Below, piece after piece: positions 7,166 to 16,102 of a stretch of 55,390 nucleotides of DNA. The translations under genes were made by a program, and so were the position numbers. Source of the DNA: a candidate division WWE3 bacterium (GTDB lineage: Bacteria > Bdellovibrionota > UBA1018 > UBA923); assembly GCA_038231515.1 (NCBI GenBank), contig JBBRLF010000001.1, positions 1 to 55,390 of the forward strand, given 5' to 3'. How positions within the stretch are numbered: position 1 is the first letter of the stretch; every line of letters starts with the position of its first letter. The notes beneath the pieces were generated by a model. The model saw nothing but the letters and a program-made list of their open reading frames with translations. It did not search any database and was not told the origin of the DNA.

Positions 7166-8866
7166 TTATGCCGATTTCTTGCCGCCAGGGCCGGGTGCCG
7201 CTGGACCGCCTACGATCTTTTCGGGGCCTACAGGCTTGGGCTTGTGTACCCATTCGTGCAGAATCATCGCCGCCTTCTGCGGATTGCTTTCGATGAGGGT
7301 CACGACCTTTTCCTTGATCATCTCGCCTTCGACCTTTTCCGGGTCGACCTTGTCGACAATGACCGGAATCACGTCCTCGACTGCATCAAGGTCGTCGGTC
7401 TGCATGCGCTCAAGCTCTTCAATGGTCTTGGGCAGAAAGCTTTCCATGTTCTCGACGGTGTTGTCCGTAAGCCATTTGACGAAGGGCCGCACGACGAAGA
7501 AGAAGAACAGCGCAATGACCGCACCGATAACCGCGTACTGGATCAGGTGGTTCATCATCTTACGACGCTCAAAGGCCGCTATGGCGATGTCCGCGTTATC
7601 CATGTCCTCGCGGCGGAACTCCATGCTCTTGATCTCAAGGGAGTCGCCGCGCTTCAGATCCAGGCCCACGGTGCTGGCCACGATCGTCTTGAACTCGGCC
7701 ATCTTGGCGTCGTCCCACTTGGCGAAGGCCGGGGCGCGGTCGGGATTAGCCGGGTCTTTACTATAGACGCCGTCGACCAGCACGGCCACCGACATCTTCT
7801 TGATCGAACCCACCGGCTTGGTTGCCCGAATAACTTTTTCGGGAACCGCGTAGTTGGTGGTTTCGTAGACCTTTTGCGTATTGCTGCGCACCTCGGGCGG
7901 CGCCGAAGCCGGGCCCGGAGTATTAGAGGCCGCACCAGGCGCGCCGCTCATGACCGGACGTGAGCCGTCCATGACATGATTTTCCTTTTGCTGCGACTTA
8001 ACCGCGCTGCCTTCGGAGTCGTACTGCGACTGAGTTTCGCTTTGCTGCGTGAAGTCCAGATCGAGCGCCACTTTAGCCACGACCTTGCCTTCGCCCACGA
8101 CGCGCGTCAGAACTTCCTGTACGCGCTTCTCGTATTCCTGCTCCATCTTCTGCTGGAAGTCGACCATCGTGGCCGTCTGAATGGCCAGCGGGTCGTTGGT
8201 GTTCTTGGACAGCATCTTGCCATTGCCGTCGACAATGGTGACGTCGCCGATTTCCATGCCCTCGATGGCCGAGGCGATCATGTGCGAGATGCCGGTAACC
8301 TGCTTGTCTTGCAGCTGCTGCCCGGGGTCCAGGTCGATCACGACGCTGGCCGTGGGCCGCTTCTGGTCTTCGATGAAGGTGGATTTATTGGGGAGCGCCA
8401 GATGCACACGTGAACGGCGCACACCTTTGAGATTATTGATCGTGCGCATCAGCTCGCCTTCGAGCGCGCGCTTCTGGTTGATCTTCTGCACAAAGCTGGT
8501 CTGACCGAAGCTTTGCTTGTCAAACACCTCGTAGCCGACAACACCCGACTGCGGCATGCCCATCGTGGCCAGCTCGAGTCTCAGATCGTAGACTGCTTCA
8601 GGCGGAATCTTGATCGTCTTGCCGTCGTTTTCGACGCGGAAGGGAATCTTCTTGTCGCGCAATACCCGCATGATGGCGGTGGCGTCTTCCGAAGCCAGGT
8701 TCGTTCCCAAGGTCTGGTAGCCCGTATCGCCCACCCAGAAGAACATCGCGGCCAAACTCGCCATGACGGTAATACCCGTCAGGATCAAACCTACTTTTCG
8801 AGCACCGCTCAGTCCATTAAAAAAGTCCTGCAGCTGCGATGTCGTCTTCTTAAAAAATTCTATCAC
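7166..8866 (-). CDS. fliF: Flagellar M-ring protein FliF
   Basis: N-terminal TM segment, a YscJ/FliF-family periplasmic domain (YEVFDKQSFGQTSFVQKINQKRALEGEL), a second TM segment and a C-terminal FliG-binding tail. 566 aa. Confidence 0.95.
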   Translation of the reverse strand: MIEFFKKTTSQLQDFFNGLSGARKVGLILTGITVMASLAAMFFWVGDTGYQTLGTNLASEDATAIMRVLRDKKIPFRVENDGKTIKIPPEAVYDLRLELATMGMPQSGVVGYEVFDKQSFGQTSFVQKINQKRALEGELMRTINNLKGVRRSRVHLALPNKSTFIEDQKRPTASVVIDLDPGQQLQDKQVTGISHMIASAIEGMEIGDVTIVDGNGKMLSKNTNDPLAIQTATMVDFQQKMEQEYEKRVQEVLTRVVGEGKVVAKVALDLDFTQQSETQSQYDSEGSAVKSQQKENHVMDGSRPVMSGAPGAASNTPGPASAPPEVRSNTQKVYETTNYAVPEKVIRATKPVGSIKKMSVAVLVDGVYSKDPANPDRAPAFAKWDDAKMAEFKTIVASTVGLDLKRGDSLEIKSMEFRREDMDNADIAIAAFERRKMMNHLIQYAVIGAVIALFFFFVVRPFVKWLTDNTVENMESFLPKTIEELERMQTDDLDAVEDVIPVIVDKVDPEKVEGEMIKEKVVTLIESNPQKAAMILHEWVHKPKPVGPEKIVGGPAAPGPGGKKSA

Positions 8867-13508: not shown

Positions 13509-13529
13509 GTGCGTCAAGAGGTGTTATCC

Positions 13530-14405
13530 ATGGGTACTTTTCGAGTAAAATCATTTGGAATCAAGATGTTGGGACTAGCCGCTCCGGCCATGCTGCTAGC
13601 CAGCATTTCGACGAGCGCCTTCGCAGGCATGCAGGTCGTCTACATCGACAGCAAGTCCAAAGACACCAACGCCCATTCGCCGGAAGTATTCCGAGCCACC
13701 GAAGAAGATGGAACTGCGAAGCTCATCCGCGCCAATACCAAGGTCGACGAGCAAAAGCCAGCCGAAGAGTTCATCCAGTCTGAACCCGTCGCAGCAGCCC
13801 CCGCTCCAGTGGCCGCGCCCGCGAAGAAGACCATGGCCGCTCCAGCCAAGTTTTCAGCCCCCGTCGCGACCGTAGCCGCCGAAGCTGCGCCAAGCGCCGC
13901 CGCAATTGATCTGGCCGAACTCAAGAGACACAACCTCGAGCTGCAAAAACGCCTCGAAGTGCTGGAAAACGCCCGCGTCGAACAGAAAGCCGAAGCCAAA
14001 GCCGACGTAACCGAAGAGCAGGCCAATGCTCAGGATGTGGCTCCAGGAGCCAAAGAACAGTCAGAGATGAAATCCGAAGACGTCGTCGAATCAAGCCCGT
14101 CGCCTACCGACACGCTCGACGCGCGCATGAAAGAAAAAGCCGCGGTTACGAAAATTGCGAGAGTCGAACAGGCCCACGAGCTGACCGCCGAGCAGAAACA
14201 AAAAGCCCTGCGCGAAAAAAGCGGAGCTTTCGACCAGGTGCCCGATCAGCACATTAAAGACGTGGCTCAGCGTCTGAAGTACACCAACGAGATCCTCAAG
14301 CGCTTCGGCCGGGCCTATGACTACCGCATAATGACGCTGGCTCAGTTCAAAAAGACACTAAACGAACTCGAACAGTCTGAAGAAAAAACCAAGTCCTCCA
14401 ACTGA
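13530..14405 (+). CDS. Hypothetical exported protein (Ala/Pro-rich linker, coiled coil)
   Basis: I prefer the ATG at 13530 (RBS AAGAGGTG 6 nt upstream) over the GTG at 13509. Signal peptide is MGTFRVKSFGIKMLGLAAPAMLLASISTSAFA. No family recognised. Confidence 0.65.
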   Translation: MGTFRVKSFGIKMLGLAAPAMLLASISTSAFAGMQVVYIDSKSKDTNAHSPEVFRATEEDGTAKLIRANTKVDEQKPAEEFIQSEPVAAAPAPVAAPAKKTMAAPAKFSAPVATVAAEAAPSAAAIDLAELKRHNLELQKRLEVLENARVEQKAEAKADVTEEQANAQDVAPGAKEQSEMKSEDVVESSPSPTDTLDARMKEKAAVTKIARVEQAHELTAEQKQKALREKSGAFDQVPDQHIKDVAQRLKYTNEILKRFGRAYDYRIMTLAQFKKTLNELEQSEEKTKSSN

Positions 14406-14458: not shown

Positions 14459-14534
14459 GCCCAGATAGCTCAGTCGGTAGAGCAGCGCCCTGAAAAGGCG
14501 CGTGTCGTTGGTTCGATTCCGACTCTGGGCACCA
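14459..14534 (+). tRNA. tRNA-Phe (anticodon GAA), CCA encoded
   Basis: GCCCAGATAGCTCAGTCGGTAGAGCAGCGCCCTGAAAAGGCGCGTGTCGTTGGTTCGATTCCGACTCTGGGCACCA. Folds as a cloverleaf with a 7-bp acceptor stem, anticodon loop CTGAAAA and T-loop TTCGATT. Near-identical in layout to the E. coli tRNA-Phe as I remember it. Confidence 0.97.
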
Positions 14535-14606
14535 CCTTTTACCTTCATCACCAAATAAACAAAAAATTAGAACACCAGGTTCCGCATACCTAAGTCGGAA
14601 TCGAAC

Positions 14607-14692
14607 GGGTTTTTGCGACCTGCGTGGAGTCGCGCTTTGAGCGCGACTGCGCGCAGGGCAGCACGCCAGGAAGGCGTGCTGAGCAAAAACCC
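14607..14692 (+). ncRNA. Candidate structured RNA module, unit 1 (three-way junction)
   Basis: P1 GGGTTTTTGC (14607-16) / GCAAAAACCC (14683-92). P2 outer CCTGCG (14619-24) / CGCAGG (14652-57). P2 inner AGTCGCGC (14628-35) / GCGCGACT (14641-48). P3 CAGCACGCC (14659-67) / GGCGTGCTG (14673-81). No plausible ORF. The strand assignment is tentative. Confidence 0.35.
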
Positions 14693-14695
14693 CCG

Positions 14696-14755
14696 GCCCA
14701 GAGGGAGCAGGCAGGAGCCTGCGACCGTCGGGCTCGATTCCGACTCTGGGCACCA
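14696..14755 (+). ncRNA. tRNA-like minihelix (acceptor stem + T arm + short hairpin, no D arm), CCA encoded
   Basis: GCCCAGA-ggga-GCAGGC-agga-GCCTGC-gacc-GTCGG-gctcgatt-CCGAC-TCTGGGC-ACCA. It has a perfect 7-bp acceptor stem identical to that of tRNA-Phe and a 5-bp T stem. The T loop is 8 nt, which is non-canonical. Confidence 0.3.
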
Positions 14756-14762
14756 CCTTTTA
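14734..14762 (+). repeat. Direct repeat: exact 29-bp copy of the tRNA-Phe 3' end (att-like)
   Basis: tcgattccgactctgggcaccacctttta is identical to 14513-14541. Confidence 0.9.
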
Positions 14763-14828
14763 ACCTTCGACCCCCATTCAAACAAGAATTAGAACACCAG
14801 GTTCCGCAGCCCTAAGTCGGAATCGAAC

Positions 14829-14915
14829 GGGTTTTTGCGTCACGGCGGACTGTCGCGCCATAAGCGCGACTGGGCGCCGTGCGGCAGCGCAGGATGCGCT
14901 GCCTAGCAAAAACCC
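14829..14915 (+). ncRNA. Candidate structured RNA module, unit 2 (paralog of unit 1)
   Basis: P1 is the same sequence as unit 1 (14829-38 / 14906-15). P2 outer CACGGCG (14841-47) / CGCCGTG (14875-81). P2 inner GTCGCGC (14852-58) / GCGCGAC (14864-70). P3 GGCAGCGCA (14883-91) / TGCGCTGCC (14895-903). The junction geometry matches unit 1, while the P2-outer and P3 sequences differ. Confidence 0.35.
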
Positions 14916-15070
14916 CCGGCCCACGCAAGCGCGCCAAAAGCCAACGAAGTTGGGTTTTGGTGTGTTGCGTACGCGAGACGAAGCGAAGCGAAGTCAGTGC
15001 GTCGGCGCGAAAGCGCCGTAACGTCGCAAACTACAAAACATGCGTCGGCAGGAGCCAGAAACCGTCGAGC

Positions 15071-15098
15071 TCGATTCCGGCACTGGGCACCACCTTTA
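15071..15098 (+). repeat. Direct repeat: degenerate third copy of the tRNA-Phe 3' end
   Basis: tcgattccggcactgggcaccaccttta. Relative to 14513-14541 it has 2 substitutions and one T fewer. Its acceptor and T pairing are degraded. Confidence 0.8.
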
Positions 15099-15376: not shown

Positions 15377-16102
15377 ATGAATAATCTGAAAGCCCTGTTT
15401 TATTCGGTGTTCTGCCTGGGAGCCATGCTCCCCGGATTTTGTCATGCTGAGGTCGCGTCAAAGTGGACACTCACCGCGGTTCAGGATGCCCCCTGCAGGT
15501 CATGGAATCCGAACAACGGAACCTGCCTGAAATGGGATACCTATCTTCAGTATTTCCCGGACTACGACAGCATGCTGTCGGGCTTCCAGCTCTACAGCGA
15601 GATCGTATCCAATCTCGACTCTCGAATCGCGGGGCTCGAAATAAAACTCCGTCCGAACACTCCACCGAACTCCACGACGATTCCGCAATGGTCGATCCAG
15701 TCGGTGGAAGCCTTGCCGTGTCGGATGTGGCGAGGAAAGACCGGGACCTGCCAAACTTGGGACGCCTACGCGCAGCACTTCCCTGACTTCACGACCGCTG
15801 CGACCGTCTTTCAACTCTACGCGGCGGCCATCAATGCGTTGGGAGATCGTGTGGCCTCGCTCGAGCTGATCGTCAATCCGGCGGGAACGCCGAATCCTGG
15901 TCATGTCGCGGATGTCGCATTGGTCGCGGTCGAAACGGCTCCCTGCACGAGTTGGGCGGTCCAAAACGGTCGCTGCGGGAGGGCTTATACCCATTTGCAG
16001 CACTACCCGGGCTATACCAGCGCGGTCGAGGCGTTCAACGCGGGTTCGACGGCGGTGACCGCGATCGACGGACGCGTCAGGACAATCGAAAATCTGCCGT
16101 AG
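15377..16102 (+). CDS. Exported protein built of three ~75-aa tandem repeats, each with a C-x9-C pair (unknown family)
   Basis: Signal peptide MNNLKALFYSVFCLGAMLPGFCHA. Repeats start at about residues 30, 105 and 180, with the shared pattern W-x-[LI]-x-x-V-[EQ]-x-x-PC-x-x-W-x5-G-x-C-x-x-W/A-D/Y-x-Y/H-x-Q-[HY]-[FY]-P-[DG]-[FY]...R-[IV]-x-x-[LI]-E. Confidence 0.75.
   Translation: MNNLKALFYSVFCLGAMLPGFCHAEVASKWTLTAVQDAPCRSWNPNNGTCLKWDTYLQYFPDYDSMLSGFQLYSEIVSNLDSRIAGLEIKLRPNTPPNSTTIPQWSIQSVEALPCRMWRGKTGTCQTWDAYAQHFPDFTTAATVFQLYAAAINALGDRVASLELIVNPAGTPNPGHVADVALVAVETAPCTSWAVQNGRCGRAYTHLQHYPGYTSAVEAFNAGSTAVTAIDGRVRTIENLP

Follow-up and report, generated by a model that had tools for sequence, protein, structure and literature searches.

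The stretch of DNA analysed here, referred to as the window, comprises 55,390 nucleotides (nt) of contig JBBRLF010000001.1 (assembly GCA_038231515.1, from a candidate division WWE3 bacterium that GTDB places in the Bdellovibrionota) and contains a single tRNA gene according to ARAGORN: a tRNA-Phe (GAA) at 14459-14534 on the + strand (70.5 bits with the Rfam tRNA model). Directly downstream, on the same strand, lie two tandem units of a structured non-coding element that form the subject of this report. An earlier note, made from the letters of the window, had placed two tandem paralogous modules between 14565 and 14923 and had proposed them as a novel structured RNA family. The tandem arrangement stood but the modules turned out to be larger, as copies of the tRNA 3' end lie on either side of them. 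An exact repeat of the 3' end of the tRNA-Phe gene from the T-loop onward, TCGATTCCGACTCTGGGCACCACC (14513-14536), lies at 14734-14757 (T-loop to CCA plus CC); a second one, which has 2 mismatches, closes the array at 15071-15094. These copies imply true units of approximately 14535-14757 (223 nt) and 14758-15094 (337 nt); units elsewhere typically measure 140-230 nt.

A unit is built up, in this order, of a spacer, an inverted copy of the tRNA T-arm ([T']), a three-way junction closed by helix P1 and containing hairpins A and B, a helix P3 with hairpin C, and the direct copy of the tRNA 3' end ([T]); the helix that [T'] and [T] could form together is denoted P0. In unit 1 the spacer (14535-14586) carries the motif AAAAATTAGAACACCAGG, which is shared with unit 2 and with locus L150, the closest relative, found via its flanking protein; a shorter stretch resembling it, AAACAAAATCAGAAC, is present in L028. 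The [T'] of unit 1 (14587-14606) inverts the T-loop, the T-stem 3' strand and, imperfectly, the acceptor 3' strand of tRNA-Phe; its exact core AGTCGGAATCGAAC (14593-14606; 14 nt) is 100% complementary to 14511-14524 and, as found in the repeat analysis of the window, pairs with 14734-14745 too. The P1 three-way junction (14607-14692), delineated by fold energy and family covariation, consists of P1 itself (14607-14616 with 14683-14692), hairpin A (14619-14657) and hairpin B (14659-14681, loop AGGAA). It is followed by P3 and hairpin C (14696-14733), recognized from the fold of 14693-14733, from the covariation between U-A and C-G in P3 and from a conserved GGA loop: the P3 helix is GCCC/GGGC with tandem GA flanks and hairpin C is GCAGGC AGGA GCCTGC. 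The exact [T] (14734-14757) completes the unit.

Unit 2 follows the same plan, with a spacer (14758-14808) found as a direct-repeat match with 85% identity to 14537-14617, a [T'] (GCCCTAAGTCGGAATCGAAC, 14809-14828) complementary to tRNA positions 53-72 at 18/20 nt (90%), and a P1 three-way junction (14829-14915) supported by fold energy and by a covariance-model match at 14814-14966 (E 3.7e-5). Here P1 is formed by 14829-14838 and 14906-14915, hairpin A spans about 14841-14882 and hairpin B about 14883-14903 (loop CAGGAUG). The P3 domain is interrupted by a hairpin-rich insertion of 123 nt (14924-15046; fold of 14916-15060, z -4.7), after which a reduced hairpin C (GGC AGGA GCC) and the P3 3' strand (15047-15070; 83% identity to 14710-14772) lead to the second [T] (15071-15094). 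Unrelated insertions were observed at the same place within P3 in the tRNA-Arg unit of L008, in the second unit of L016 and in L098, and the place looks like a variable cargo site. The [T'] sequences of the window contain GTCGG, the exact complement of the T-stem 3' strand CCGAC, where the tRNA's own 5' strand reads GTTGG, and therefore [T'] is a true inverted copy.

The details on which the modules had been proposed were confirmed. Both blocks that the units had been said to share occur exactly twice each in the window, with about zero occurrences expected by chance; for the 5' block this was tested with a 20-nt stretch (14567-14586 and 14789-14808), and the 3' block was matched over its 19 nt (14682-14700 and 14905-14923). 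The inverted-repeat analysis returned P1 (GGGTTTTTGC/GCAAAAACCC) and the inner helices as described. The two P1 domains gave the identical three-way junction with very low energies (-65.5 kcal/mol, z = -10.3, for unit 1; -59.3 kcal/mol, z = -7.1, for unit 2; z = -9.7 for unit 1 as a whole), and the open reading frames (ORFs) in the region are short, overlapping and spread over both strands, none of them convincing, in line with the earlier statement that no credible ORF is present. What had been missed is that the shared 53-nt 5' block includes the inverted T-arm copy (14593-14606 and 14809-14828) and that a second conserved domain, P3 with hairpin C, follows 3' of P1 with its hairpins A and B. 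A tRNA-like minihelix that we had considered in unit 1 (GCCCAGAG, 14696-14703, with CTCTGGGC) was discarded: it is not kept in L020 or in the spirochaete units, and its GCCC is the 5' strand of P3.

Relatives were collected by scanning the P1 pattern over the GTDB genomes and then over metagenomes, by which the set reached 47 units, and a covariance model was made from 36 distinct units. This model yielded 55 matches at E < 1e-5 in the collected loci, some of them with a differing P1 sequence; at E <= 1 unit 1 of the window scored 86 bits, unit 2 scored 28 bits and the unit of L150 33 bits. The family spans termite-gut Spirochaetia, Fibrobacteria and groundwater 'Deltaproteobacteria', its more than 50 members deriving from two syntenic 'Deltaproteobacteria' metagenome-assembled genomes (MAGs) and from many termite-gut Spirochaetia, Treponema and Fibrobacteria contigs. 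One of the two MAGs (L020) has the same flanking gene as the window, followed by tRNA-Phe and one unit with compensatory changes in hairpins A, B and C. The spirochaete and Fibrobacteria units recovered by the GTDB scan all follow closely on a tRNA gene (His, Arg, Trp, Gln, Met, Lys or Ser); in L025 there are three in tandem after tRNA-His, with a period of 167 nt. That the family is wider than the search pattern is shown by L053, which comes from another environment and has a unit next to tRNA-Gly, and by L098 and L135, where the P1 of the units is different.

Many pattern matches were set aside as non-members, among them palindromes in Chloroflexota, a soil element of 85 nt and coding regions. 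The palindromes (GGGGTTTTTGC...GCAAAAACCCC; L007, L011, L015, L022 and L024, all from the Chloroflexota MAG JPAS_maxbin.107) match the search pattern on both strands, obtain weak covariance-model scores only (14-26 bits) and are probably a genome-specific repeat family. The conserved element of about 85 nt (GGTTTTTGCGGGAT...CGAGCAAAAACC, preceded by AAATTCGATTTGGTTCCGTCGTAGC) is found twice in L054 (9710-9794 and 10223-10307) and in the metagenome contigs L057, L063, L068, L102, L106 and L133, and is unrelated to the tRNA-linked family.

The aligned units support the structure throughout. RNAalifold predicted 47 pairs, of which 31 show compensatory changes, and in the alignment of the 55 matches 95.4% of the cells are paired, versus 75.1% in shuffles and 33-54% in slid controls, with changes on both sides at 42/47 pairs and a covariation score of 0.51 versus 0.16. 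An independent MAFFT alignment gave the same structural picture. The P3 pairing GGCCY/RGGC switches cleanly between U-A and C-G, and P1, invariant in the pattern-selected set, covaries at 8/10 pairs once the variants are included. Outside P0, G·U and U·G pairs outnumber A·C and C·A pairs by 57 to 9, and this excess implies that it is the tRNA-sense strand that folds, as RNA or as top-strand DNA. While the stems vary, the loops are conserved: loop B reads C-A-N-G-G-A-N-G and loop C reads C-A-G-G-A-N-G, with GGA present in 49-51/51 B loops and 46-50/50 C loops (at least 92% of the units), and GGA recurs on both sides of the P3 internal loop. The P1/A/B junction leaves 1-2 unpaired nucleotides per strand, and hairpin A comes in three subtypes, each common to several tRNA identities.

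The covariance model called for by the earlier note thus found homologs with strong covariation, and compensatory changes occur in every helix among relatives from other genomes and metagenomes; we regard it as nearly certain that the structured family is real. It also appears to be novel. Rfam 15 returned only the tRNA for the window region, even at E <= 10 (other matches reached at most 23 bits, far below gathering), and no family for L016, L020, L025 or L039, and we saw no match to the end of a known integrative element. The units are not transfer-messenger RNA (tmRNA), as judged by ARAGORN and Rfam, and not a retron, since no reverse transcriptase domain was detected in the tested neighbouring ORFs. 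Full-text literature searches, one of them for the P1 sequence strings, and a search by term in Weinberg 2010 retrieved no description of the element. Two further candidates were rejected: a stretch resembling the 5' region of tmRNA (GGAAUCGAACGGGUUUUUGCG), where ARAGORN and Rfam find none and where GAAUCGAAC is the inverted T-loop, and a hammerhead or other self-cleaving ribozyme, for which the junctions are too small and Rfam gives no match.

The element sits immediately 3' of a tRNA or tRNA pseudogene, in the orientation of that tRNA, wherever there is sufficient upstream sequence. A called tRNA on the same strand lies within 1.2 kb upstream of 40/47 units (about 130 nt at most for the first unit of an array), 3/47 further units adjoin truncated tRNAs, and the remaining 4/47 start less than 90 nt from a contig end and are uninformative in this respect. 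The tRNA identities number 12 (Phe, His, Arg, Lys, Met, Trp, Gln, Ser, Thr, Tyr, Asn and Gly); three more model matches, in L016, adjoin tRNA-Ala, a candidate for a further identity. Pseudogenes were observed in L078 (- strand), as a tRNA-His lacking the D arm upstream of the unit at 7202-7353, and upstream of the units at 954-1094 in L103 and at 3286-3428 in L135, where about the 3' half only of tRNA-Thr and tRNA-Met is left. Next to an intact tRNA-Met, L046 has a unit near-identical to that of a pseudogene locus. In L026 (950-1800) two units, the second lacking its 3' end, are inserted between tRNA-Trp and a downstream gene that we take to be secE, within what appears to be the conserved rpmG-tRNA-Trp-secE-nusG cluster.

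Both copies are matched to the adjoining tRNA. The longest exact match averages 12.4 nt with the cognate tRNA versus 5.4 nt with non-cognate tRNAs for [T'], and 15.4 nt versus 5.6 nt for [T]. Among 37 units, at least 95% have a [T'] that can pair at tRNA positions 54-64 and 35-54% one that can pair at the single positions 66-72, a subset covering the complete acceptor 3' strand; past 72 the complementarity falls to background. The first tRNA position included in [T] is T-loop position 56, and in most cases the copy runs through to the tRNA 3' end. T54 and T55 are thus represented, as their complement, in [T'] but not in the distal [T], and in L112 and L020 [T'] remains matched to the tRNA though the distal [T] has decayed; both observations suggest that pairing with the upstream tRNA copy may matter. 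At L066 [T'] also contains a complement to the CCA end, which we rejected as evidence for an RNA template because it is absent from the Ser and L082 units and probably arose by chance.

Several observations bear on mobility. Cores that are 83-89% identical adjoin different tRNAs (Ser/Met, Tyr/Met, Asn/Met and Lys/His). In a His-Arg-Lys-Gly tRNA cluster the tRNA-His is followed by three units in L025 and by one in L008, and the tRNA-Arg by a unit in L008 and by none in L025 or L078. The syntenic tRNA-Phe locus, of which the flanking protein is 47-71% identical over the three genomes, carries two units in the window, one in L020, and one plus a spacer remnant in L150. Within arrays some of the units are truncated or decayed, and certain arrays close with an isolated [T]-spacer-[T']. 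The element is very probably mobile, or was once mobile, and targeted to tRNA genes. The earlier interpretation as tandem paralogous RNA modules holds as far as selection on pairing is concerned, but free-standing paralogous RNA genes are not what the locus resembles: because direct repeats of the tRNA 3' end delimit them and an inverted T-arm copy lies within, the units look like tRNA-targeted insertions.

The explanation that we favour, with a probability of about 0.5, is that the window holds tRNA-Phe with two tandem copies of a small, mobile, non-coding element that targets tRNA 3' ends and is transcribed with the tRNA. The element would target the segment from the T-loop to the 3' end of tRNA genes and leave it duplicated, as T-loop-class integrative elements do, and the gene-less unit would then be read from the tRNA promoter. 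In the RNA, [T'] would pair with [T] as the closing helix P0, which would resemble an acceptor/T-arm minihelix whose 3' tail is free; in a subset P0 would rebuild the acceptor/T-stem helix, and the tRNA-like tail could borrow the tRNA end-processing. The repeat CAGGA(U/C/A)G of CsrB and the consensus RUACARGGAUGU obtained by systematic evolution of ligands by exponential enrichment (SELEX) are high-affinity sites of CsrA/RsmE, and both CA(N)GGA(N)G hairpins of a unit match them. A unit might therefore hold one dimer of a CsrA/RsmA-type protein, in which case units and their arrays would act as small sponges tied to the output of the tRNA operon. That the RNA of the unit binds CsrA is a tentative proposal. 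The matching of [T'] to a new tRNA could be brought about by guide-like targeting, by templated quasi-palindrome correction with the adjacent tRNA gene, or by an RNA-templated step.

A number of observations weigh against this explanation. The predicted CsrA binding is suggested by motif resemblance only, no csrA gene was seen in the window, and the Rfam Csr/Rsm and TwoAYGGAY models were unmatched (E <= 10 for the window region, E <= 1 for the other loci). The members were fished out by their P1 sequence, so that P1 invariance and taxonomic spread are biased, and the alignment made with the covariance model has been fitted to the structure, so that its pairing counts are somewhat inflated. An intrinsic terminator separates the tRNA from the core in L053, L066, L071, L082, L112 and L124, and a promoter of its own upstream of [T'] was rejected, as the profiling by position of 42 upstream regions brought out no common motif and no conserved -35/-10. 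Together these two findings weaken simple co-transcription at the loci concerned, where read-through would be needed, and they keep alive the idea of a folded single-stranded DNA. The folded form could be either RNA or top-strand single-stranded DNA. The clustering of 363 neighbouring ORFs revealed locus-specific synteny only, by which a linked protein gene was rejected; in the window, the 10 largest of the ORFs tested, within about 10 kb, showed no integrase-like domain, and no recombinase or reverse transcriptase is linked to the units. In favour of transcription with the tRNA, on the other hand, the scan of the window gave no strong terminator between tRNA and units, no promoter-like site, and one weak terminator-like match inside the insertion of unit 2; elsewhere the terminator hairpin often comes after the distal [T].

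The same observations have to be held against the alternatives. It is unlikely that the unit is a recombination module that works as folded single-stranded DNA, in which the tRNA 3' end, the spacer and [T'] form a hairpin that mimics the duplex tRNA target, cassettes are inserted and amplified by a recombinase acting in trans, and the core is a DNA structure. The order [T]-spacer-[T']-core-[T] is the trace expected of a hairpin-bearing circle that integrates single-stranded, the tandem arrays with their occasional solitary [T]-spacer-[T'] ends and the [T'] that follows the upstream tRNA despite a decayed [T] (L112, L020) agree with it, the spacer terminators oppose simple co-transcription, and the G·T bias suits top-strand DNA as well as RNA. 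However, integron-type R/L boxes were not recognized by eye and a recombinase is not linked, circles of about 150-230 nt without a replication function would be unprecedented, and the near-invariant GGA in two hairpin loops typifies RNA-protein recognition. A phage or plasmid origin was rejected in addition: scans of viral contigs gave a single unrelated match, and BLAST against phage and plasmid records nothing similar.

Rather unlikely is a cis-acting device in which [T'] pairs with the upstream T-arm to control folding, 3' processing or termination of the tRNA (a hairpin followed by GGGUUUUU) and the core senses a protein or ligand. It would account for the complementarity of [T'] to positions 54-64 in nearly all units, T54 and T55 included, for the match that persists where the distal [T] decays, and for those units that have a perfect tRNA/[T'] hairpin of 19 bp with a loop of 9-11 nt and a U5 run 4-5 nt later. 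Spacers of up to about 110 nt, however, make poor hairpin loops, second and third units of an array have no tRNA to act on, some of the linked tRNAs are pseudogenes, and the movement between tRNA types is left unexplained.

A non-autonomous retroelement resembling a short interspersed nuclear element (SINE), of which the RNA with its tRNA-like 3' end is copied by a reverse transcriptase in trans and the tRNA-hybrid cDNA recombines into tRNA genes, as for variants of the Mauriceville retroplasmid of Neurospora, we hold to be quite improbable. In its favour, the ends of the units follow structural boundaries of the tRNA (T-loop 54/56, acceptor end 72) and not arbitrary DNA positions, and both copies are re-derived at each new tRNA; yet a reverse transcriptase is not linked, the CCA-end complement in [T'] is not consistent (L066 only), and neither poly-A nor other marks of retro-insertion were seen. 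Finally, functionless scars, i.e. attL/attR remnants of islands or prophages repeatedly integrated and deleted at tRNA genes, would explain the truncated and decayed copies and the direct repeats that begin in the T-loop (reportedly, after Williams in 2002, a signature of T-loop-class tyrosine integrases), but this reading is very improbable and largely refuted by the covariation, with compensatory changes in five helices across phyla, more G·U than A·C and conserved loop motifs, and it sits badly with one core of 140-150 nt beside 12 tRNA identities without an integrase nearby, with the lack of matches in viral contigs, phages and plasmids, and with the persistence of the unit at the syntenic tRNA-Phe in three genomes with so diverged a flanking protein.

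Compared with known systems, the tRNA-targeted element that we favour combines features that are otherwise found apart. T-loop-class integrative elements and gene-less cis-mobilizable elements (CIMEs), said to have been described by Williams in 2002 and Pavlovic in 2004, are likewise inserted at the 3' end of a tRNA gene and flanked by a direct repeat from T-loop to end, likewise occur in tandem arrays and likewise vary in presence among related genomes. The units differ from them in size (about 150-340 nt), in having no integrase in cis or nearby and no autonomous relative that we could find, in the extra inverted copy of the target, and in an interior that consists of a covarying single-strand structure instead of arm sites for protein binding. 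Integron attC sites and the attP(+) of CTX phage share with the unit an imperfect inverted repeat that can fold into a target-mimicking hairpin, cassette-like tandem units and a clear strand bias; in the present case, however, the target is a tRNA gene and not attI or dif, the large structured core has GGA loops, and, as to attC, reading the [T] and [T'] arms by eye revealed no GTTRRRY-type R/L boxes and there is no link to IntI or Xer. Miniature inverted-repeat transposable elements (MITEs) do not fit, as the inverted repeat is copied from the target and differs from tRNA to tRNA, the duplicated segment measures 17-26 nt or more, and the window has only two adjacent copies, not dispersed ones. 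P0 resembles the a1/a2 repeats of retron msr/msd, but the tested neighbouring ORFs lack the reverse transcriptase domain of such a system and no protein gene recurs beside the units.

On the RNA side, the unit resembles CsrB, CsrC, RsmX-Y-Z and TwoAYGGAY in exposing several GGA motifs in hairpin loops, in having two such hairpins about 45-60 nt apart per unit and in the tandem arrangement of the units. Unlike these sponges it matches no Rfam Csr/Rsm or TwoAYGGAY model, its binding is predicted, it sits in tRNA operons without a GacA/UvrY-type promoter, and it occurs in Spirochaetia, Fibrobacteria and 'Deltaproteobacteria'; we know of no CsrB-type sponge in spirochaetes. With tmRNA, YrlA and mascRNA the unit has in common a 3' end composed of the T-stem 3' strand, the acceptor 3' strand and the discriminator of a tRNA (with CCA if gene-encoded), and in a subset [T'] restores the full acceptor/T-stem helix. 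In contrast to those RNAs, its T-loop is paired and replaced by the core, D and anticodon arms are missing, the tRNA-like part varies with the neighbouring tRNA, and ARAGORN and Rfam do not see it as tRNA or tmRNA. The leuZ 3' external transcribed spacer and rrA/rrB/rrF are also non-coding RNAs located downstream of a stable RNA within its transcription unit, but these are fixed in one operon, unrepeated, immobile and without flanking copies of the stable RNA. For rrA/rrB/rrF, which follow rRNA operons, binding of CsrA and Hfq in vitro is reported (PMC8144298).

The analysis would add a structured non-coding family that is well supported, widespread and not represented in Rfam, and indicates that tRNA genes can carry tiny non-coding passengers of which the ends are rewritten to fit each tRNA. 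The element is best classed as a tRNA-targeted insertion that carries a structured small RNA, and there is a real chance that it moves by a new mechanism. More doubtful is the full proposal of a new kind of mobile element, in which a gene-less module of about 150 nt would move among tRNA identities, end in inverted and direct copies of the segment from T-loop to 3' end, be targeted in a templated or guide-like manner (directed by RNA or by a hairpin), unlike any transposon or integrative element, and carry as its cargo a tRNA-capped RNA that titrates a CsrA-like global regulator. If the GGA hairpins bind CsrA, spirochaetes would have in the unit a first candidate for an RNA that antagonizes CsrA, and the expression of the unit would be tied to the output of a tRNA operon; to our knowledge the only CsrA antagonist known in these organisms is the protein FliW.

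Two protein-coding genes flank the array in the window. Downstream, at 15377-16102 (+), a protein of 241 amino acids is encoded that has a signal-peptide-like start and three internal repeats of about 70 amino acids with conserved Cys/Trp positions; it has no Pfam match and is encoded on one other contig of the collection only. Upstream, at 13509-14405 (+) between groES-groEL and tRNA-Phe, lies the gene of an Ala/Pro/Glu-rich protein of 298 amino acids without a Pfam domain, for which only 7 homologs were recovered among 5.8 billion proteins. Those homologs of which the context is visible all share the order groESL, this gene and, in part of them, tRNA-Phe. On contig P0005, from a relative further removed, the gene is followed by a gap of only 166 nt. 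This is too short for a unit, so that the place may be an empty site.

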